Source: Candidatus Aminicenantales bacterium (GTDB lineage: Bacteria; Acidobacteriota; Aminicenantia; Aminicenantales; Saccharicenantaceae). Taken from it: 64,000 nt of DNA. The notes beneath the pieces were generated by a model. That model was not told the DNA's origin. It saw nothing but the letters and a program-made list of their open reading frames with translations, and did no database searches. Positions within the stretch are counted from its first letter, which is position 1, and each line of letters starts with the position of its first letter. The DNA is taken from contig JBEKVN010000013.1 of the NCBI GenBank assembly GCA_049513915.1, forward strand, positions 78,265 to 142,264, read 5' to 3'. Below, one piece after another: positions 3,455 through 52,245 of this stretch. The translations under genes and the position numbers were made by a program.

Positions 3455-5590
3455 ATGTCATCATCTTCCGTCAACTCAGCGAAGTTCAAGATCCTGGACG
3501 GCCTGTTGAGGCCGAAAACGATCGCCGTGGTCGGCGCTTCGGGCACGCCGGGGAAACTCGGCTACACGGTCCTCAAGAACATTCTCGCCAACGGATACAG
3601 CGGCACCGTATACCCCATCAACCTCAACGACCCCGAGATCCTGGGCCTCAAGGTCTACAAATCCGTCCTGGACGTCCCGGGAGAGATCGACGCGGCCATC
3701 ATCTGCGTTCCGGCCAGGTTATGCGCCCAGGTCACCGAAGAGTGCGGAAAAAAGGGCGTCAAGGGCCTGATCGTCATCACGTCCGGTTTCAGCGAAATCG
3801 GCCGGAAGGACCTGGAGGAGGAGATCGTCCGGATCGCCTTGAGGTATGGGACCCGAGTCCTCGGGCCGAACATCGTCGGCATCATGTCAAACTCGGACAA
3901 GCTCAACGCCTCCTTCGCGCCCTTCCTCCCCTTCCCCGGCAAGCCTTCGCTCGTTTCCCAGAGCGGGGCCCTCATCGTGGCCATGGACGCCGCGACCTAC
4001 TTCCGGCGCGTCGGCTTCGACAAGATGATCTCGGTCGGCAACATGGCCGACGTGGACCTCGCCGACTGCATCGAGTGGCTCGACGCCGACCCGAACACGA
4101 CCTGCATATCCCTCTATATCGAAGGCCTGAAGAACGGCCGGCGCTTCATCGACGCGGCCCGGCGCGTCCGGACGCCCGTGGTGGCCCTCAAGGCCGGGGT
4201 TTCCGCCCACGGCGCGGCGGCGGCGGCCTCGCACACGGGGTCCCTGGCCGGGGCGTCCAAAGTCTACGAGGCCGCCTTCAACCAGGCCGGGATCGTCCAG
4301 GCGGTGGACCTGAACACGCTTTTCGACCGCAGCCTCGCCCTGTCACTCCAACCGGCCATGAGGGGCGACAACCTGTTCGTCCTGACGAACGGCGGCGGCG
4401 TGGGTGTCCTCGCGACAGACGCGGCCGAACGCTTCGGGGTCCCGCTCCAGTTCGCGCCGCCCGACCTCCAGGCCGAGCTTCGCAAGCATATGCCCGAATT
4501 CGGCTCGGCCAAGAACCCGGCCGACCTGACCGGCATGGCCGGAAAAGACTGGTATTATGAATGCGTCAAGGCCATCCTGGCCCATCCCTGGGTGGACGCC
4601 CTGGTTATCCTCTACTGCGAGACGTCGCTCACGGTCCCCATGGAGGTCGCCCAGGCCATCCATAAGAGCATCCTGGATTCGGGCGTGACCGATAAGCCGG
4701 TGGCCATCGCCTTCGTGGGCGGCGAGCAGTCGGAGGAATGCCTGCACTGGTTCATCGAGAAGGGTCTCCCGGCTTACGAAGTGCCGGACAAAGCGGTCAA
4801 CGCGGTCGCCGCCCTGCGCGAGTACTCGAGGATCCGGTCCCTGGTCACCGAGATCCTGCCCGAGCCCGGCGGCAAGTCGCCAGACCAAGCCAGAGAAGTT
4901 ATCGCCGCCGCCCGCGCCCAGGGCCGGACCGTCCTGACCGAGGTCGAGGCCAAAGAGGTCTTTTCCGCCTATGGGCTCCCGGTGGCCGCGACGGTCCTGG
5001 CCCGAACCGAGGACGGGGCGGTCACGGCGGCGAAGAAGATCGGATACCCGGTCGTCATGAAGATCGTCTCGCCCGACATCATCCACAAGTCCGACGCGGG
5101 CGGGGTCAAGGTCAACATCAAGGACGACGGCGGCGCACGCTCCGCTTACCGGGCCATCATGGCCGCCGCCAAGACCTATAAGGCCGACGCGGACATCCAC
5201 GGGATCGCCGTCCAGCCGATGGCGCCGTTCGGGACCGAGGTCATTCTCGGCTCCGTCGACGACCCGAGCTTCGGCCCCACGGTCATGTTCGGGCTGGGGG
5301 GGGTCTTCGTCGAGATCCTCAAGGACGTGACGTTCCGGGTCGCGCCCGTGTCGTCCACGCAGGCCGGCCGCATGCTGGAGGAGATCGAAGGCGCGCCGAT
5401 CCTGGCGGGGGCGCGGGGTGAATCGCCCAGGGACCGGGAGGCGCTCATCCAGCTCATCATGGCCTACTCACGGATGATCCTGGACCTCGAGGACGACATC
5501 GCCGAGTCCGACGCGAACCCGGTCTTCGTGTACGAAAAAGGGAAAGGGCTCGCAGTCGTCGACGCCCGGATCATCCTCAAGAAAAAATAG
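3455..5590 (+). CDS. ADP-forming acetyl-CoA/acyl-CoA synthetase, fused alpha+beta (NDP-forming, ATP-grasp)
   Basis: 711 aa. N-terminal CoA-binding/succinyl-CoA-synthetase-like region (IAVVGASGTPGKLG). C-terminal ATP-grasp beta domain (KEVFSAYGLPVA, VVMKIVSPDIIHKSDAGGVKVNI). Confidence 0.8.
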   Translation: MSSSSVNSAKFKILDGLLRPKTIAVVGASGTPGKLGYTVLKNILANGYSGTVYPINLNDPEILGLKVYKSVLDVPGEIDAAIICVPARLCAQVTEECGKKGVKGLIVITSGFSEIGRKDLEEEIVRIALRYGTRVLGPNIVGIMSNSDKLNASFAPFLPFPGKPSLVSQSGALIVAMDAATYFRRVGFDKMISVGNMADVDLADCIEWLDADPNTTCISLYIEGLKNGRRFIDAARRVRTPVVALKAGVSAHGAAAAASHTGSLAGASKVYEAAFNQAGIVQAVDLNTLFDRSLALSLQPAMRGDNLFVLTNGGGVGVLATDAAERFGVPLQFAPPDLQAELRKHMPEFGSAKNPADLTGMAGKDWYYECVKAILAHPWVDALVILYCETSLTVPMEVAQAIHKSILDSGVTDKPVAIAFVGGEQSEECLHWFIEKGLPAYEVPDKAVNAVAALREYSRIRSLVTEILPEPGGKSPDQAREVIAAARAQGRTVLTEVEAKEVFSAYGLPVAATVLARTEDGAVTAAKKIGYPVVMKIVSPDIIHKSDAGGVKVNIKDDGGARSAYRAIMAAAKTYKADADIHGIAVQPMAPFGTEVILGSVDDPSFGPTVMFGLGGVFVEILKDVTFRVAPVSSTQAGRMLEEIEGAPILAGARGESPRDREALIQLIMAYSRMILDLEDDIAESDANPVFVYEKGKGLAVVDARIILKKK

Positions 5591-5595
5591 CCGCC

Positions 5596-5677
5596 TCTAT
5601 TTCGGTGACACACAACTAAATACACTAATTAGGGACCTGTGCCTATTTCGGTAATTAGTTGTGTGTCACCGAAATTG
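5596..5677. repeat. AT-rich palindromic intergenic element, family A copy 1
   Basis: Perfect 20-bp inverted arms TTTCGGTGACACACAACTAA (5600-5619) and TTAGTTGTGTGTCACCGAAA (5655-5674), plus an internal direct repeat CTATTTCGG. A second copy lies at 21895-21975. GC is far below the window average. Confidence 0.6.
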
Positions 5678-5693: not shown

Positions 5694-6566
5694 TTACTTA
5701 CAACAAAGGTTGTATTTCTTGAGCAAATGGTCCGGCTGATAGGACAGCTTGGCCTTGCGCAGCCCCGGCACGCCCACGTCCTGCTCGCGGTTGATGAAGC
5801 GGAAGCCGGACCACTCGCGGCGCACGAATTCGCGGTTGATCCATTGGGCCAGGCCGGGGAAGGCGGGGTTGGCGATCTCGATCTGAATGAGGGCCGTGTC
5901 GTCGGTTAGCGGCGTGCCGATGGTGAAGGCCTCGACCCTCCCGCCTACGGACACGACCGCGCCCGCGAGGTCGAGCTTCTCGAAGAGGAGCAGGGCCTCG
6001 AGGATGGCTTCCTTTTCGGCCTTCATGTACGGGTCGCCGTTGCCCTTCTCCTCGAACCACTGAGAGAGGAGGCGGCGGCAGTCGTCGGCGTGTTCGCTCC
6101 GGAGCCGCTCGTAGGCGTGGGCGAACGTGGACTCGAACTTCCTGATGCGGTTGCGCTTTCCGTCGTACTTCTTGCCCTTGAGCTCCGCCAGGTCTTCCCG
6201 AAGATAGACGTAATCGAAGTTGTCGCGGTCTTCCTCGATCTTGTAAGGGGCGCCGTACTGCCGGACAAAAGCTTCGGGCACGCGGGACAGGCGCGGGGCG
6301 TGGGTTAGGCAGGTCTCGATCGTCTTTTCGATTTCGTTCTCACCTGCCGGCGGCAGAAAATAGGCCGGCTCGAACGTCGGCTCGACGAGGATGCAGAGGT
6401 TCCCGTTGAGGGCCGTGTAGCGGGGACGCTCGGAATCCTTCCAGATGAAGATGTTGGGGAAGCTCATCTCGCAAACCCCGGACGGGTTCACGTCCAAGTA
6501 CCGATTGACGAGGTCCCGGTCGTCGAAGCCGAGAGGTTTGAATTCGGGATATAGCGGAGGATTCAT
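5694..6566 (-). CDS. DUF2156-family protein (MprF C-terminal-like aminoacyl-transferase fold)
   Basis: Conserved DUF2156-like sequence. Likely start is the ATG at 6566 (MNPPLYPEF), which overlaps the GNAT stop in an ATGA arrangement. The ORF track extends to 6617. Confidence 0.6.
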   Translation of the reverse strand: MNPPLYPEFKPLGFDDRDLVNRYLDVNPSGVCEMSFPNIFIWKDSERPRYTALNGNLCILVEPTFEPAYFLPPAGENEIEKTIETCLTHAPRLSRVPEAFVRQYGAPYKIEEDRDNFDYVYLREDLAELKGKKYDGKRNRIRKFESTFAHAYERLRSEHADDCRRLLSQWFEEKGNGDPYMKAEKEAILEALLLFEKLDLAGAVVSVGGRVEAFTIGTPLTDDTALIQIEIANPAFPGLAQWINREFVRREWSGFRFINREQDVGVPGLRKAKLSYQPDHLLKKYNLCCK

Positions 6567-6976
6567 GACACCTTTCTCACCATGACGGTGCACAGCCGCG
6601 CGTCGCAGCCTTCGCACCAGGCGGTCTTCCGCTTTTCGGGGAACGTCGCGGGGATTTTCCGGGCCTTTTCAAAGCCGCACGTCTTGAAGAAACCCGGGAC
6701 AACGGTCGCCAGGTAAACTTCGCCGGAGGCCGCGTCCATCAGGGCCTCGACCAGGGCCTTGGCGAGGCCCTTCCCCCGGTGCCCGGGGTCGACCCCCAAG
6801 GCGCAAAGCTCCAGGCAATCGGTGTGCTTCTTCAAGCCCACCAGGCCGACCACCCGGCCCTCGGCTTCCGCCACCCAGAGATCATCCCTCTCTATGCCGG
6901 GGTAATCCAAGCCCAGGGTCCGGGCCAGTCCGACGGCGAGGGGGACGTCTTCCGGGACGGTTTTGCGGACGCGCAT
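6563..6976 (-). CDS. GNAT family N-acetyltransferase
   Basis: 137 aa with acetyl-CoA binding motif (GVDPGHRGKGLAKALV). Stop overlaps the start of the downstream DUF2156 gene. Confidence 0.7.
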   Translation of the reverse strand: MRVRKTVPEDVPLAVGLARTLGLDYPGIERDDLWVAEAEGRVVGLVGLKKHTDCLELCALGVDPGHRGKGLAKALVEALMDAASGEVYLATVVPGFFKTCGFEKARKIPATFPEKRKTAWCEGCDARLCTVMVRKVS

Positions 6977-12716: not shown

Positions 12717-15437
12717 ATGTCTCATCCAACCAGTCTCCGAAAGGCCGTCGCTCCGGCGGCCACGTTGGTTATTTTCCTGAGCTTTGCGATTCTGAGCCCG
12801 GCCGCCGCCCCCGGCGCCGAAATGAAGAAGGCCGACAAGGCCAACTATGAGCTGGCCGCGCGCTTTACCTCGGCCAAGGTCGGGAAGCTCGTCTTCGACA
12901 CTTCCGTCCAGGCCCACTGGCTCGAGACGGGCGACAGGTTCTGGTACAGCTGGGAAACGAGCAAGGGACGGTCGTTTTCCATCGTCGACCCCCTGCGCGC
13001 CACGAAGAGCCCGCTCTTCGACAACGCCCGGATGGCGGCCCTGCTGACCGGGATCGTCCTGACCCCGTATGACTCCCAGCACCTGCCCTTCCGGACCGTG
13101 AAATTCATCGACAAAGACACGGCCCTCCGCCTGGAGCTCGAGGTCCAGAAGGACTCGGACGTCCGCCTCGGGGACAAGATCGTCAAGGCCGGGGACATCG
13201 AGAAGAAGCGCGAAGACGCCAAGAAGGCCAAGGAGGAGGAGGCCAAGACGCAGGAGAAGAAAGACCAAGAGAAGAAGGAGCAGGACAAGAAGGACCTGGA
13301 AAAGAAGGAGCTGGATAAAAAGGACCAGGATAAAAAAGACGCCGATAAGGACAAGGCCAAGGAGCCCGAGAAAAAAACGACCACCCTCTATTTCGAGTAT
13401 CAGCTCGCCACGGGCACGCTGACGCTCCTCCCCGACTACGAGGCGCCGCCCAAGCGGCCCAAATGGGCGTCCGTTTCCCCCGATGAAAAAATCGTCATCT
13501 TCGCCCGCGGCTTCAACCTCTTCATGATGGACGCCGAGAACTTCAAGCTGGCCCAGAAAAAAGCCGACGACGCGGCCATCAAGGAGGTCCAGCTCACGAC
13601 CGACGGCGAGGAGCACTATTCCTACGCCCGTGACCTCAATGAGGAAGATAAGAAGGAGCTCCAGAAGGACGAGAAGGACCGCAAGGATTACCGCGTCCCG
13701 GCCGGCTATATCGTCTGGTCCAAGGACTCGAAAAAGTTCGCCTGTGTCCGCGAGGACGAACGCAAGGTGGGCGACCTCTGGGTTATTAACGTCCTGGCCA
13801 ACCCGCGCCCGACGCTCGAAACCTACCGCTACGCCATGCCGGGCGAGGAAAACCAGGCCCAGCCCGAGCTCCTCGTTTTCGATATCGCGAGCAAGGGCAA
13901 GGTCAAGATCAAGGCCGACGGCTTCAAGGACCAGACCCTGGGGGTCGAGACAGCGCCCCGCCGCAACGTGGACCGCGAGAAGGACTTTCCGCCTCCGTCC
14001 CAGTGGCTGAGCGACACGTCGGACAAGCTCTATTTCGGGCGCCAGAGCCGGGACCTCCACAAGTATGACGTCTGCGTCGCCGACACGGCGACCGGCGACG
14101 TGAAGGTCTTGATCGAGGAGCGCCTGAATACCTATATCGACGTCGAGTCCCTCCGCCTTGTCAACGGCGGCAAAGAAATGGTCTGGTGGTCCGAGCGCGA
14201 CGGCTGGGGCCATTACTACCTCTATGACGGCGACGGCAAGCTCAAGTCGCAGATCACTTCCGGCGAGTTCACCTGCCAGGGGATCGAGGGCGTCGACGAG
14301 AAGACCCGCGTCCTCTACTTCAACGCCTGCGGCCGCGAGCCGAGCGAGGACCCCTACTTTTTCCACCTCTACCGGGTCAACCTGGACGGCACGGGGCTCC
14401 GGCTCCTCAACCCCGGCGACGCCAATCACGGGGCCGACGCCGACGACAACCTGCGCGTGTTCATTGACACGTTCTCGCGCGTCAACACGGCCCCGGCCTC
14501 GGAGCTGCGGGACATGATGGGGAACGTCGTCCTCAAGCTCGAAACGACGGACACGGGCGCTCTTGTCGAGGCCGGCTACAAGTTCCCCGAGCCGTTCAAG
14601 GTCAAGGCCGACGACGGCATCACCGATCTCTACGGCGTCATGTACAAACCCTTCGACTTCGACCCCGCCGTGAAGTATCCGATCATCGCTTACGTCTATC
14701 CGGGCCCCCAGACCGAGAGCGTAACCAAGACCTTCTCGCCCCGGAACGGCAACGTCGCCCTGGCCCAGCTCGGGTTCATCGTCATCGAAGTCGGCAACCG
14801 CGGCGGCAACCCCATGCGCTCGAAGTGGTACCACAACTACGGCTATGGCAACCTCCGCGACTACGGCCTGGCCGACAAGAAGCGGGCCATCGAGGAGCTG
14901 GGCATCAGGTACCCCTATATCGACGCCGACCGGGTCGGCATCTACGGCCACTCGGGCGGCGGTTTCATGACGGCCGCAGCCCTGCTCGTCTATCCCGATT
15001 TCTTCAAGGTCGGCGTGTCCTCGTCCGGAAACCACGAGAACAACATCTACAACCGCTGGTGGAGCGAAAAGCATCACGGCGTCAAGGAAGTCACGGACAA
15101 GGAAGGGAACATCAAGTTCGAGTACAGCATCGAGAAGAACTCCGAGATCGCCAAGAACCTCAAGGGCCACCTCCTGCTCACGACGGGGGACATGGACAAC
15201 AACGTCCACCCGGGGAACACCATCCGGCTGGCCAACGCCCTGATCAAGGCCAATAAGCGCTTCGACTTCTTCCTCTTCCCGGGCCAGCGCCACGGCTACG
15301 GCGACATGAACGACTACTGGTTCTGGATCCGGGCCGACTACTTCGCCAAGTACCTGCTCGGCGATTTCTCCCAGACCGTCGACCTCATCGAACTGCAGAA
15401 GGAGAAAGAGCAAACGGGGGACAAGAAGGGACGGTAG
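12717..15437 (+). CDS. dipeptidyl peptidase IV (S9B prolyl oligopeptidase family) with Lys/Glu-rich insert
   Basis: Signal peptide. DPP4-type N-terminal propeller and a C-terminal alpha/beta hydrolase with catalytic GHSGGG serine motif, later Asp and His (DNNVHP). A 60-aa K/E/D-rich low-complexity insert lies at aa 161-220. Confidence 0.85.
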   Translation: MSHPTSLRKAVAPAATLVIFLSFAILSPAAAPGAEMKKADKANYELAARFTSAKVGKLVFDTSVQAHWLETGDRFWYSWETSKGRSFSIVDPLRATKSPLFDNARMAALLTGIVLTPYDSQHLPFRTVKFIDKDTALRLELEVQKDSDVRLGDKIVKAGDIEKKREDAKKAKEEEAKTQEKKDQEKKEQDKKDLEKKELDKKDQDKKDADKDKAKEPEKKTTTLYFEYQLATGTLTLLPDYEAPPKRPKWASVSPDEKIVIFARGFNLFMMDAENFKLAQKKADDAAIKEVQLTTDGEEHYSYARDLNEEDKKELQKDEKDRKDYRVPAGYIVWSKDSKKFACVREDERKVGDLWVINVLANPRPTLETYRYAMPGEENQAQPELLVFDIASKGKVKIKADGFKDQTLGVETAPRRNVDREKDFPPPSQWLSDTSDKLYFGRQSRDLHKYDVCVADTATGDVKVLIEERLNTYIDVESLRLVNGGKEMVWWSERDGWGHYYLYDGDGKLKSQITSGEFTCQGIEGVDEKTRVLYFNACGREPSEDPYFFHLYRVNLDGTGLRLLNPGDANHGADADDNLRVFIDTFSRVNTAPASELRDMMGNVVLKLETTDTGALVEAGYKFPEPFKVKADDGITDLYGVMYKPFDFDPAVKYPIIAYVYPGPQTESVTKTFSPRNGNVALAQLGFIVIEVGNRGGNPMRSKWYHNYGYGNLRDYGLADKKRAIEELGIRYPYIDADRVGIYGHSGGGFMTAAALLVYPDFFKVGVSSSGNHENNIYNRWWSEKHHGVKEVTDKEGNIKFEYSIEKNSEIAKNLKGHLLLTTGDMDNNVHPGNTIRLANALIKANKRFDFFLFPGQRHGYGDMNDYWFWIRADYFAKYLLGDFSQTVDLIELQKEKEQTGDKKGR

Positions 15438-20129: not shown

Positions 20130-20980
20130 GCCAGGACGCCGTCATCGGGATCGACCTCGGAGGAACGAACGTCCGGGCCGGGCTGGTTGTCGGCGGCCGC
20201 CTGGCCGAAGTCCGCTCCGTCCCCGTCCGGAGCCAGGGCACGGAGCGCGACGTCCTCGAGGACATGTTCAGCGCCGTTGATGCGGTTATGCGGAAGGATG
20301 TCGCCGGAATCGGGGCCGGCGTCCCCTCGGTCATCGACCTCAAGAAAGGGGTCGTTTACGACGTCCAGAATATCCGCTCCTGGAAAAAGGTCCCGCTCAA
20401 GACCAACCTCGAGGAGCGCTACCATCTGCCGGCCTACGTCAACAACGACGCCAACTGCTTCGCCGCGGGCGAAAAATATTTCGGCAAGGCCAAGCCCTAC
20501 GATCACGCCGTCGGCCTGATCATCGGGACGGGCCTCGGGGCCGGGATCATCGCCAACGGGCGGCTCTACTCGGGGATCAACTGCGGGGCCGGCGAATTCG
20601 GCATGCTCCCCTACCTCGACCGGAATTTCGAGGCCTACGCCAGCGGCCAGTTCTTCGAGCGCGTCCACGGCACGAGCGGCCGCGAGATGGCCGGCCGGGC
20701 GGAGCGCGGCGACCAGCGGGCCCTCGACATCTTCGCGGAATTCGGCATCCACGTCGGCGAGGCCGTCAAGGCCATCTGCTACGCGGTCGACCCCGAGGTC
20801 ATCGTTCTGGGCGGCTCGATCAGCAGATCCTTCCGCTTTTTCCGCGAATCCCTATGGACGACATTCCAGACGTTCGCCTATTCCATCACGAAGGAGCGTC
20901 TGAAGATCGAAGTCTCCGAGACCGAAAATATCGCCATCCTGGGCGCCGCCGCCCTCTATTACGACGCGCTGGCGAAATAG
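20126..20980 (+). CDS. ROK-family sugar kinase (glucokinase/N-acetylglucosamine kinase-like)
   Basis: N-terminal GIDLGGTNVRAGLV ATP-binding motif and ROK consensus region. Confidence 0.8.
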   Translation: MSQDAVIGIDLGGTNVRAGLVVGGRLAEVRSVPVRSQGTERDVLEDMFSAVDAVMRKDVAGIGAGVPSVIDLKKGVVYDVQNIRSWKKVPLKTNLEERYHLPAYVNNDANCFAAGEKYFGKAKPYDHAVGLIIGTGLGAGIIANGRLYSGINCGAGEFGMLPYLDRNFEAYASGQFFERVHGTSGREMAGRAERGDQRALDIFAEFGIHVGEAVKAICYAVDPEVIVLGGSISRSFRFFRESLWTTFQTFAYSITKERLKIEVSETENIAILGAAALYYDALAK

Positions 20981-20997
20981 GCCGTTGGAGTCATGAA

Positions 20998-21879
20998 ATG
21001 ATCAGACCTCATCAGAAACCGCTCCGGCCGGTCTGCGCCGCAGGGATCCTCGCCCTGTTGACATTCGCCGCCTGGGATCCGGCCCCTGCCCGGGCCGAAA
21101 GCAAGGGTCTCCTCGGCCCGTGGAAGGCCACGGCGGAATTGAGCTTCGTCGTCACCGGGGGCAACACGGCCACCGCGGCCTTCAGCCTCGCCAACACGCT
21201 CAAGCGGAGCTGGGAGAAGGACGCCCTGACCGTCAAGACCTACCTTCTGAGCAGCCATGCGACGACCATCACGAGGACCGCCGTCGGCACCGAAACGGAT
21301 TTCAGCGTCATCGAGCAGAAAACCGAGCGCCTGGTGGCCGAGAACTTTCTCGTGTCGGGAATGTATGACCACCGCCTCTCCAAGAAGGTGGTCCTCCAGG
21401 TCGGCCTCGGCTGGGACCGCAACCGGTTCGCGGGCCTCGCCAGCCGGGTCATATTCACGGCCGGCACGGGCTACGCCTGGATCGAAACGGACCGGACGCA
21501 GTTCAAGACCGACGGCGCCATGACGTACACCCTTCGCAAGTACTTCGGCCAGCCGGCCACGTCGTTCGCCGGTTTCCGGGCGATCGCCACCTTCGAGCAA
21601 AAGCTCTTCGACTCGTCCGCTTTCGCCAGCCAGTTCATCTTCGACGAAAACCTGAAGAGGACGGTCGATTGGCGTTACGACTGGACGAACTCCGTGACCG
21701 CCTCCATCTCCAAGTCCCTGGCGCTCAAGACGAGCGTCCGGCTTCTGCACGCCCACTTGCCTGCGAACGAAGCCGTCCCGCTCTTTGATCCCGAGGGCCT
21801 CCCGACAGGCCTGACCGTTCCGGTCCCGCTGAAGAAAGTCGACACGCTCTTCACGACCTCGATCGTCATCAACTTTTAG
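20998..21879 (+). CDS. DUF481-family outer-membrane beta-barrel protein
   Basis: Start MIRPHQK carries a signal peptide (ILALLTFAAWDPAPARA). Beta-barrel pattern, C-terminal Phe (VINF). The longer ORF from 20854 overlaps the ROK gene and was rejected. Confidence 0.6.
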   Translation: MIRPHQKPLRPVCAAGILALLTFAAWDPAPARAESKGLLGPWKATAELSFVVTGGNTATAAFSLANTLKRSWEKDALTVKTYLLSSHATTITRTAVGTETDFSVIEQKTERLVAENFLVSGMYDHRLSKKVVLQVGLGWDRNRFAGLASRVIFTAGTGYAWIETDRTQFKTDGAMTYTLRKYFGQPATSFAGFRAIATFEQKLFDSSAFASQFIFDENLKRTVDWRYDWTNSVTASISKSLALKTSVRLLHAHLPANEAVPLFDPEGLPTGLTVPVPLKKVDTLFTTSIVINF

Positions 21880-21894: not shown

Positions 21895-21975
21895 ATAACG
21901 GTGACACATAACTAAATACACTAAATAGGGATATGCGTCTATTTCGGTAATGAGTTATATGTCACCGAAATCAAC
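21895..21975. repeat. AT-rich palindromic intergenic element, family A copy 2
   Basis: CGGTGACACATAACTAAATACACTAAATAGGGA...CTATTTCGGTAATGAGTTATATGTCACCGAAAT. Roughly 85% identical to 5596-5677 with the same arm/core layout. Confidence 0.6.
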
Positions 21976-22072
21976 CGGACCGGGTTTGACCGGGCCCGGG
22001 ATTCTTAGTAAAATACTAAGGAATGATGATCGACTTTAGCGGGAAGAGTCTCACAGGAGGAAGGGGGGTGTC

Positions 22073-22504
22073 ATGAAAAAACGATACTGGCGCTGCAACA
22101 TCTGCAACGACGTTCACTACGGAATCGCCCCGCCCGAGCTTTGCCCGACGTGCCAGGCGCTGAACGCCTACGCCGAGATCACGGCCGATGAAGCTCGCAA
22201 GTTCCTGGGCGGCGGCCCCGACGTGACCTTCACGCCGGCCGATTTCCGGCAGGCCATCGAACGGTTCACCTCCGGGAACGAGTTCATGGTCAACCCGGAC
22301 CCGGGCAAGGTCGAAACCCTGGTCGAGGGGATCTTCGAGAATGAGAAAAACCACGGGTTCAAATACTGCCCTTGCCGCCTGCGCACCAAGGACTGGGAAG
22401 AGGATTTGAAACTCGTCTGCCCCTGCAACTTCAAGATCCACGAAACCTATCGCGGACTTCCGAACGGCGAATGCTGGTGCGGACTCTTTGTCAGGAGGAC
22501 ATAA
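22073..22504 (+). CDS. rubredoxin-like domain fused to ferredoxin:thioredoxin reductase catalytic-subunit-like domain
   Basis: N-terminal CxxC...CPxC rubredoxin knuckles (RCNICNDVHYG...CPTCQA). C-terminal CPC-x14-CPC-x15-CWC resembles the FTR catalytic CPC..CPC..CHC arrangement. RBS AGGAGG. Confidence 0.6.
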   Translation: MKKRYWRCNICNDVHYGIAPPELCPTCQALNAYAEITADEARKFLGGGPDVTFTPADFRQAIERFTSGNEFMVNPDPGKVETLVEGIFENEKNHGFKYCPCRLRTKDWEEDLKLVCPCNFKIHETYRGLPNGECWCGLFVRRT

Positions 22505-40899: not shown

Positions 40900-40990
40900 C
40901 TCGGGTTCCCTCTTTTTTAAAAGCTAACATAGGCCTTTCCGAGCATTACGTCAAGACCGGCGGGCGCCCTCCGGGGGGAAATCGGCCTTG

Positions 40991-41091
40991 AAGAATGGGG
41001 ACGAAGAATGGGGACGGTCCTGGTTTTCCATCCGCGGCCCAACCGGGATTTCTCTCGCCTATCCTAGAAAACCAGGACCGTCCCCATTTTC
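40991..41091. repeat. family B hairpin element copy 1 (25-bp inverted arms GAATGGGGACGGTCCTGGTTTTC / GAAAACCAGGACCGTCCCCATTTTC)
   Basis: Arms at 41003-41028 and 41067-41091 around a 38-nt loop. A partial tandem duplicate GAAGAATGGGGAC precedes the left arm. Confidence 0.6.
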
Positions 41092-41226
41092 GTGGTCCGC
41101 GTCACCCTGAAGCTCCACGGACTTGCGTCCGTGGAACCCCAAGAACGGGATTGACAGGCCCCGGACAGCGGCGTTATCATAAGCGGCGTGATTGTCGGGG
41201 GTTTTTCAAATCAACGGAGGTAAAGA

Positions 41227-44963: not shown

Positions 44964-45112
44964 CGCATCTCCCGGCCGCAGTTTCCACGGTCCTGCACTG
45001 GGTCCTAATATAGAGGATTACCGGCCCCGACTAAAGACTTTTCGTTCTTCGGCGATCAACCCGGGAGCCGGCCTTGAATTCGCCCGGGGGCTCTGCTATA
45101 AGCAGGGGGTGG

Positions 45113-45202
45113 GGAAAATGGGGACGGTCCTGTTTTTCCGGCTGCATCCCAAGCGAGACTTCTCTTGCTTATATAAGGAAAAACAGGACCGTCCCCATTT
45201 TC
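45113..45202. repeat. family B hairpin element copy 2 (arms GGAAAATGGGGACGGTCCTGTTTTTCC / GGAAAAACAGGACCGTCCCCATTTTC)
   Basis: Arms at 45113-45139 and 45177-45202 around a 37-nt loop similar to copy 1. Preceded by TTGAAT-17-TATAAG at 45075-45103. Confidence 0.6.
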
Positions 45203-45267
45203 AGTCCCCATTTGCAGACCCCGGCTCCGGGGATACGCCCGCTCCGCAGCGCGAAAGGGAGGATCCC

Positions 45268-52053: not shown

Positions 52054-52061
52054 TTTTTTTT

Positions 52062-52245
52062 ACATCAGGAGAGGCTCGATCCTAACCGATCGGACCCGGC
52101 AACCTGGGGCGGACACCCGAGGTGCTCACTCGCCAGCGGCGAGGATGTGGTCGCGAAAGCGAACGCGGCAACCAAGTGTCCAACGGCCGACAAACCCGCC
52201 TTCCTGATGATAGAGAGGTGGGTTTTTTTGCGGCCGCGCATTGAC
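52062..52245 (+). promoter_or_regulatory. SAM riboswitch (SAM-I clan: SAM-I/SAM-IV-like) in metK 5-prime leader
   Basis: P1 strands CATCAGGAG (52064-52072) and CTTCCTGATG (52200-52209). Conserved core AGGAGAGGC...GGACCCGGCAACC resembles SAM-I ...AGAGAGGCGGAGGGA...GCCCGGCAACC. Followed by a hairpin plus T7 tract. metK lies directly downstream. Confidence 0.55.
52191..52228 (+). terminator. putative riboswitch expression-platform terminator (ACCCGCC...GGTGGGT + TTTTTTT)
   Basis: 7-bp stem with one G-U around a 16-nt loop, overlapping the P1 3-prime strand, followed by a seven-T run at 52222-52228. Confidence 0.3.

Follow-up and report, generated by a model that had tools for sequence, protein, structure and literature searches.

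Probable REPIN-type dimers of a transposase terminal repeat dispersed in Candidatus Aminicenantes genomes

The 64,000-nt stretch of Candidatus Aminicenantales DNA analyzed here (hereafter the window; positions 78,265 to 142,264 of contig JBEKVN010000013.1, assembly GCA_049513915.1) contains two copies of an AT-rich palindromic element, copy 1 at 5599..5675 and copy 2 at about 21895..21973. We consider it very probable that this element belongs to the non-autonomous miniature mobile elements of the REPIN type and is built as a dimer of the terminal inverted repeat (TIR) of a single-copy gene encoding a Y1 (HUH) transposase of the REP-associated tyrosine transposase (RAYT) or TIRYT kind. The family is newly documented here for the Aminicenantes; the kind of element is already known.

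A dispersed module and its inverted doublets

The conserved unit of the family is not the 80-bp palindrome but a module of about 31 nt, AATTTCGGTAATTAGTTGTGTGTCACCGAAAT (31-33 nt), which is itself a dyad (TTTCGGT-N15-ACCGAAA) and is seen both singly and as inverted pairs with spacers that differ widely in length and sequence. Scanned against a single genome for each GTDB species, the right-arm pattern TTTCGGTAAN{8,12}GTCACCGAAA returned 56 stretches, about 30 of them in at least seven metagenome-assembled genomes (MAGs) of Candidatus Aminicenantales, Aminicenantia or Aminicenantes, with several per MAG, and the remainder being isolated, chance-like single matches in other taxa. Scanning metagenomes with CGGTAATNNGTTNNNTGTCACCGAA yielded at least 120 matches, and the module turns out to be almost confined to Candidatus Aminicenantes MAGs and to peat or sediment metagenomes. 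With hundreds of copies in Aminicenantes genomes and metagenomes, the proposal of an initial annotation, made from the letters of the window alone, that the palindrome is a dispersed repeat rather than a terminator specific to one gene is borne out; the opposite outcome, no other copies and no conservation, was looked for and is clearly not what we found.

A hidden Markov model (HMM) of the module, run over 1.07 Mb of Aminicenantes-type DNA (the fetched loci, designated below by numbers with the prefix L), detected 102 doublets and about 70 strong unpaired modules, and 248 distinct module sequences are present in these loci. All 102 doublets share a single architecture, a reverse module followed by a forward module with GGTGACAC/GTGTCACC as outer ends, and range in length from 72 to 260 nt (median 99). 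Beyond the seed match of each locus, one extra element is encountered per about 36 kb of flank. The window, with two elements in 64 kb, has the same density, and extrapolation from the flank density gives roughly 100 elements per genome. Both window copies belong to a subclass of about 77 nt whose left module shows a diverged inner half (AAATACACTAAAT). Since this variant sits at no fewer than 18 different loci, with unrelated flanks, the doublet has been copied as a unit. Neither GTAG nor GTGG is found at either foot of the module or doublet consensus, and the element is therefore not classed as a canonical REP, a category defined by the GTAG tag (PMC3733652, PMC6006769).

A partner Y1 transposase gene

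Between outward-facing module pairs lying 0.8-2 kb apart, the sole recurrent content is an open reading frame of 218-237 residues (L156, L081, L127, L139 and L154). Y1_Tnp genes with modules on both sides were found at five metagenome loci and also at L179-L183. The encoded protein scores 42-51 bits against PF01797 (Y1_Tnp; cutoff 23), and its best NCBIfam match is NF047646, REP-associated tyrosine transposase (58-60 bits). Its only sequence match in the PDB is E. coli TnpA_REP (4ER8), with which it shares about 18% identity and with which the HUH motif (NHVHL) and the catalytic tyrosine (RYVECNPV) are aligned. An AlphaFold model built on 50 homologues (pLDDT 88.3) likewise has 4ER8_A as its top Foldseek match (E 4e-9; TM score 0.75 on the 165-residue target and 0.54 on the query), followed by the IS608, ISDra2 and IS200 transposases. 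The homologue alignment and the model also reveal that the protein is extended at its C terminus by about 90 conserved, helical residues, in which Pfam detected no domain, helix-turn-helix (HTH) domains included, even at E 10.

The genomic setting of this gene is strikingly constant. In every one of the 22 contigs read, which comprise three protein clusters of 78-100% identity, the transposase gene lies between tRNA-Met and the 3' end of rpoD, behind which comes dnaG, and is separated from the former by one to three reverse modules upstream and from the latter by one or two forward modules downstream (L179-L193, L156, L081, L127 and L139 included). Because the same tRNA-Met, rpoD and dnaG neighbors recur in every contig read, the transposase locus is a single, vertically inherited one and not a multi-copy insertion sequence (IS), as judged from these contigs. 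The conserved site adjoins the macromolecular-synthesis operon.

Other genes lying between distant outward-facing modules, such as a racemase with a kinase-like gene (L165), a glycosidase-like gene (L102) and a VapBC-like pair (L146), were discarded as drivers of the repeat because none of them recurs. The pair in L146 (712-1934) consists of a ribbon-helix-helix and a PIN gene, has a GC content of 52% against 59% for the locus, and may represent cargo caught between two repeat ends.

Co-divergence of enzyme and repeat

More diverged transposases carry more diverged modules. The two RAYTs that are 61% identical to cluster P0001, L154 and L200, have the variant modules GCGTTGAC and GAGTTGTC; the repeat flanking L154 (...GGTAATGCGTTGACTGTCACC...) is a variant dispersed in the SPRUCE 56 and OBJ_0618 MAGs, and L200 is flanked by a 36-nt TIR, TTGGTGACAGACAACGCAACCCCTAAATT. 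Among homologues in other lineages, whose TIRs measure 26-36 nt and are 92-100% complementary, an Elusimicrobia protein (L196, 58% identity to P0001) has the 27-nt, 100% complementary TIR AATTATGGGGACACATCACTTAATTAT, and an Omnitrophota protein (L194, 59%) the TIR CCAGGGACACAACACTTAATTA. Both of these TIRs (26-27 nt) are visibly alignable with AATTACGGTGACACACAACTAATTA of the Aminicenantes module.

The outer end of the module, GGTGACAC, agrees with the published TIR motif GGGGWSAS at seven of eight positions, and the Elusimicrobia homologue carries an exact instance of the motif, GGGGACAC, within its alignable TIR. The GTGACAC/GTGTCAC half-sites that the initial annotation had put forward for a possible protein-binding palindrome are better read as this outer transposase-end motif than as a regulator operator. 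Furthermore, the terminal 8-17 nt (GTCACCGAAAT / ACCGAAAT) are repeated in part, in tandem, within 36 nt beyond 22 of the 233 outer ends (9%), against a background of 1.4%. An example is GTCACCGAAATA-TCACCGAAATAG, and loci with such reiterations include L047 (4427-4474), L156 (9828-9880) and L087 (3237-3285); they are present beside the transposase gene too. As a matter of speculation, these reiterations might be footprints of alternative cleavage or joining sites.

The two copies in the window

By repeat, fold and gene-context analyses, copy 1 (5599..5675, no strand assigned) is a complete inverted doublet, that is, a REPIN-like TIR dimer. Its arms TTTCGGTGACACACAACTAA (5600-5619) and TTAGTTGTGTGTCACCGAAA (5655-5674) are perfect reverse complements, as had been noted for 20 bp, and the perfect outer stem reaches 21 bp once A5599/T5675 are included. 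The right arm (5644..5676, + strand) is an intact module, TATTTCGGTAATTAGTTGTGTGTCACCGAAATT (module HMM, 47.4 bits, E 2e-13), with the small dyad TTTCGGT-N15-ACCGAAA and with GTGTCACC, the reverse complement of GGTGACAC, as its outer end. The left arm (5598..5629, - strand) is an inverted module with a partial HMM match (5596-5623, 28 bits). Its outer 20 nt are intact and its inner half has diverged (AAATACACTAAT in place of AATTACCGAAAT), a trait common to the 77-nt subclass according to the subclass alignment. In the same alignment the apical spacer, TAGGGACCTGTGCC (5630..5643, no strand), is the part that varies most among copies.

Copy 2 (about 21895..21973, no strand assigned) has the same layout and orientation as copy 1, with two mismatches in the outer stem. 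Its right arm is again an intact module, TATTTCGGTAATGAGTTATATGTCACCGAAAT (21940..21971, + strand; module HMM, 42 bits, E 1e-11), and its left arm (21895..21926, - strand; partial HMM match at 21899-21919) is an inverted module with a diverged inner half, as judged from the subclass alignment. A second copy of the same layout had been correctly recognized at the outset, at an estimated identity of about 85% that the repeat finder corrects to 88% over 73 nt (5603-5675 versus 21899-21971). When the 25-nt consensus is scanned with up to three mismatches, these are the only two sites in the window (none expected in 100 shuffles), and neither nhmmer with a two-copy profile nor the module HMM uncovered further copies in it. 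The GC content is indeed far below background (39% for copy 1, 34% for copy 2), the background itself being 63.6% for the window and not 66% as first stated.

Copy 1 does lie where it had been placed, between two convergent genes: one for an ADP-forming acetyl-CoA synthetase (ACD; 3455-5590, +), the other a PF09924 gene (formerly DUF2156; 5694-6617, -). It begins 8 nt past the TAG stop codon of the former and ends 18 nt short of the stop codon of the latter. Copy 2 begins 19 nt past the TAG stop codon of a DUF481 gene (20854-21879), upstream of a promoter-like site and of an FTR-beta/rubredoxin-like gene (ferredoxin-thioredoxin-reductase beta; 22073-22504). The promoter-like site (21986-22014; TTGACC-17-TAAAAT, 10/12 matches) lies between copy 2 and the latter gene; L035 keeps the -35 hexamer TTGACC in its orthologous region, where the -10 hexamer reads TAGAAT, one change from TAAAAT.

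Both copies fold well. As RNA they reach -45.5 kcal/mol (copy 1, z -8.9) and -30.6 kcal/mol (copy 2, z -5.0) against shuffled sequences, and as single-stranded DNA (ssDNA) -26 and -14 to -15 kcal/mol, respectively, the z-scores of doublets ranging from -5 to -10. A single module in ssDNA forms a 9-bp stem with a 15-nt loop (-6 kcal/mol, z -4.1). The reported lack of a U-tract holds for both copies, neither of which scores as an intrinsic terminator: the stems are AT-rich, no T-run follows them and no terminator was called at either site. At the Rfam gathering score, the only match in the window is an unrelated SAM riboswitch, and under permissive thresholds the element attracts only generic long-hairpin (miRNA-model) matches far below their thresholds.

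Genomic placement and orthologous sites

The elements are extragenic as a rule, only 6 of 161 unique elements overlapping a predicted gene by more than 25 nt, and the median distance to the adjacent stop codon is 9 nt. Among the 107 elements that could be classified by context, 59 lie between tandem genes, 31 (29%) between convergent and 17 (16%) between divergent genes; the intergenic regions of the same loci comprise 347 tandem, 105 convergent (19%) and 94 divergent ones. In the asymmetric subclass, the two orientations relative to the neighboring gene are about even, with no bias.

In four relatives (ACD protein identity 76-84%), the intergenic region between the acetyl-CoA synthetase and PF09924 genes contains no module, and copy 1 is therefore lineage-specific. 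Three of these relatives have spacers of 37-62 nt with GC-rich hairpins, and the fourth (L202, 3437-3710) holds a different, GC-rich insert of 274 nt in the orthologous gap. The intergenic sequences of the empty sites are unalignable with the window flanks and so give no exact insertion boundaries for copy 1. The left end of the L202 insert, AAGTGGGACGGGTCCTG, resembles a second repeat family of the window (40990-41095 and 45105-45210, described below), and different elements may have landed in this gap repeatedly. Polymorphism is seen elsewhere as well: L160 is an empty site with respect to L121, in which the module directly follows the TAA stop codon, and at several orthologous sites a doublet in one population corresponds to a singlet in another. 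Copy 2, on the other hand, has been kept at its orthologous site in SPRUCE 645 (L035), a MAG distinct at the species level, in the syntenic order ROK, DUF481, element, FTR-beta. At this site the neighboring proteins share only 74-84% identity, and one C-G to T-A exchange preserves the stem. Neither the flanks nor the empty site showed direct (target-site) duplications.

Discussion

Under the explanation that we favor, each element consists of two modules of about 31 nt, inverted and facing outward around a short variable spacer, and the module is the terminal repeat that brackets the Y1 (HUH) gene in Aminicenantes genomes. By analogy with E. coli TnpA_REP and with IS200/IS605 TnpA (PMC8266576, PMC6006769), a single-stranded module, or the whole doublet, would fold into a hairpin; the transposase would then recognize the folded end and cleave and rejoin it without target duplication, allowing copies to spread in trans. 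The transposase gene itself, again by analogy, would stay fixed beside rpoD. Presumably, a hairpin behind a gene also acts on the transcript as REPs do, through 3' end protection or pausing, but such a role is not needed to explain the family. By analogy with REPs, the acetyl-CoA synthetase and DUF481 transcripts might plausibly undergo a secondary effect of this sort at their 3' ends.

Several observations weigh against this explanation, or at least temper it. The family lacks the canonical GTAG tag of classical REPs, the module hairpin has a loop of 15 nt that is unlike those of typical REPs, and the match of the Aminicenantes family to GGGGWSAS extends to only seven of eight positions. The 58-60 bits obtained by the transposase against NF047646 fall below the equivalog cutoff of 80. 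No transposase gene is found in the window, and its presumed link to the genome from which the window derives is made through related contigs and co-occurrence at the MAG level; the contigs with transposase clusters P0001, P0006 and P0007 come from sister samples only, none of them from ENA ERZ27250059, the metagenome assembly whose contig k141_167633 contains the window. Transposition, cleavage and transcript effects are predicted from known systems. Finally, support for selection on the hairpin itself is weak, pairing and covariation giving no independent evolutionary proof of it. The similarity between arms is 0.849 within doublets and 0.833 between doublets (about 3 standard deviations above permutations). 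In an alignment of 19 subclass members, pairing (89.3% versus 88.8% in shuffles, with 96 of 500 shuffles reaching at least the observed value) is no better than in controls, and neither is covariation (0.065 versus 0.053 in column-shuffled controls, 26 of 500). The stem within the module is nearly invariant, and its sole variable pair shows no significant coupling (Fisher p = 0.10). With pairing and covariation so close to their controls, the palindrome is accounted for by a conserved end sequence duplicated in inverted orientation, and an independently evolving RNA structure is not indicated.

Three other explanations were weighed against a REPIN-type dimer. One would see the palindromes as transcript elements selected by the host, either terminators lacking a U-tract or 3' stabilizing hairpins, kept gene by gene and resembling each other through a shared binding factor and not through mobility. 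The strength of the hairpins, their short distance to stop codons, the moderate excess in convergent contexts and the retention of copy 2 in another species, though its flanking proteins have diverged, can all be invoked in its favor, as can the GC-rich hairpins that relatives without copy 1 hold in the same intergenic region. It is nonetheless unlikely: besides the missing U-tract and terminator call, it has to contend with the 16% of classified elements that lie between divergent genes, with the balanced orientations and with the lack of excess covariation, and it would need mobility anyway to account for the presence/absence polymorphism and the association with a transposase. At most, a transcript function would be a secondary, co-opted one.

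A classical miniature inverted-repeat transposable element (MITE), in the sense of an internally deleted IS derivative with terminal inverted repeats of about 30 bp mobilized by a DDE transposase, would share the layout of two TIRs around a spacer of variable length and sequence. Yet the only recurrent gene between outward-facing modules is of the Y1/HUH type, no other transposase was found between modules, no target-site duplication is visible at flanks or empty site, and the repeat-bearing gene occupies one fixed locus in a single copy instead of being multi-copy like an IS, all of which make a MITE of this sort very improbable. The REP/MITE-like candidate of the initial annotation thus survives in its REP-like sense, the repeat unit bracketing a RAYT-type Y1 transposase gene. 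Slimmer still are the chances of a site for a site-specific recombinase or DNA-binding regulator (a dif- or attC-like site or an operator palindrome) or of a structured small RNA gene. The module does contain a dyad of the 11-9-11 kind (ATTTCGGTAAT / GTCACCGAAAT), AAC/GTT motifs occur within the arms, and the extra ACCGAAAT motifs that follow outer ends exceed their background frequency. Against a recombination site, however, there is neither an integrase nor a cassette array, copies being dispersed singly among housekeeping genes, and the ACACAAC/GTTGTGT sequences do not fit the RYYYAAC/GTTRRRY consensus of attC and lie 10-13 nt inside the palindrome. The small structured RNA that had also been suggested at first finds no backing in an Rfam family beyond sub-threshold generic miRNA models, in covariation, which is no better than in shuffles, or in any orientation bias.

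Returning to the REPIN-type dimer, the closest published counterpart appears to be the TIRtron/TIRYT system, in which RAYT-like genes are flanked by long TIRs sharing GGGGWSAS, the TIRs occur as singles, dimers and groups, and a distinct Acidobacteria group is recognized (Di Nocera et al. 2013, PMC3733652). Quentin et al. (2018, PMC6006769) equate TIRYT with TnpA_Y1 subclass 2.1, a subclass marked by a C-terminal extension, as well as with the RAYT group 1 of Bertels et al. (2017, PMC5581495). Judging by sequence features, this description seems to fit the Aminicenantes system better than the canonical REPIN-RAYT one. As in TIRtrons, the Y1 gene is flanked by long TIRs instead of GTAG REPs, with inverted modules at all loci; the outer end resembles GGGGWSAS, at seven of eight positions in the Aminicenantes and exactly in the Elusimicrobia homologue; scattered copies take the form of singles, head-to-head dimers and groups; and the protein exceeds the E. 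coli RAYT in length and has a C-terminal extension. The differences lie in the population, which is large (about 100 per genome by extrapolation) and dominated by hairpin-forming dimers, and in the extension, in which Pfam detects no HTH in the Aminicenantes; the TIRYT C-terminal domain is HTH-like, with similarity to Bac_DnaA_C, HTH_23 or HTH_28. In the account of Di Nocera et al., TIR families reach moderate abundance and occur in few genomes (PMC3733652), and Quentin et al. reported no REP-like sequences near subclass 2.1 genes (PMC6006769).

With the REPIN-RAYT systems of Pseudomonas and Enterobacteria (Bertels & Rainey 2011, PMC3116915; RAYT groups 2 and 3, PMC5581495), the Aminicenantes family has in common the arrangement of two inverted units and a spacer in a hairpin of about 80-130 nt, the extragenic location, the coexistence of singlets and doublets, the persistence at orthologous sites across species and a cognate Y1 transposase that is single-copy, vertically inherited and flanked by repeats. 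It departs from them in lacking a GTAG/GTRG tag, in having as its unit a weak stem of 7-9 bp with a 15-nt loop in place of a tight REP hairpin, and in its setting, an AT-rich element in the GC-rich genome of an acidobacteriotal host (Aminicenantia). The comparison with E. coli TnpA_REP in complex with its REP hairpin (4ER8) and with the TnpA of IS200/IS605 (IS608, ISDra2) runs along similar lines: 4ER8_A is the best fold match and the NHVHL and RYVECNPV motifs align, but sequence identity is low and the C-terminal helical region is an addition of the Aminicenantes protein. Our literature search found no paper linking the Aminicenantes with RAYTs or REPINs.

More tentatively, and with doubts that outweigh our confidence, one might go further and see here a REPIN-style population, both large and long-lived, whose driver is a RAYT of the TIRYT type (subclass 2.1 / group 1) in an uncultured class of the Acidobacteriota, with the enzyme fixed beside the dnaG-rpoD operon and with the terminal 8-17-nt reiterations perhaps recording an outer-end cleavage and rejoining process unlike the GTAG-guided one.

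None of this overturns current understanding. A REPIN-type origin would, nonetheless, explain the AT-rich intergenic palindromes of Aminicenantes MAGs, which annotators need not call small RNAs or terminators, and it would extend the known hosts of REPIN-like populations by an uncultured phylum. It would also offer a clean pairing of enzyme and repeat for the analysis of GGGGWSAS-type TIR recognition, with a fixed single-copy gene, roughly 100 repeats per genome and variants that diverge together. On a practical level, the repeats may break MAG assemblies, and their insertion polymorphisms could serve to mark strains.

Other features of the window

A second inverted-repeat family is represented in the window by two copies, at 40990-41095 and 45105-45210, each with the arms AATGGGGACGGTCCTGGTTTTCC ... 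GGAAAACCAGGACCGTCCCCATT around a spacer of about 40 nt. The copies lie 4.1 kb apart and bracket two M16 peptidase genes, and as ssDNA they fold at -33 and -38 kcal/mol (z -7 and -10). Their outer end, GGGGACGG, matches GGGGWSAS at seven of eight positions and is tandemly reiterated (GAAGAATGGGGACGAAGAATGGGGAC), and only two further exact 15-mer matches are present in the fetched loci. This is probably another family of TIR dimers with a Y1 enzyme of its own.

The SAM riboswitch mentioned above is a SAM-I/IV aptamer at 52057-52185 (+ strand), with a score of 42.2 bits against an Rfam gathering score of 41.1. Lastly, the region at 13197-13680 is coding and contains Lys/Glu/Asp-rich repeats with a period of 15 nt (GAGAAGAAGGAGC...), a pattern that points to a low-complexity protein segment.

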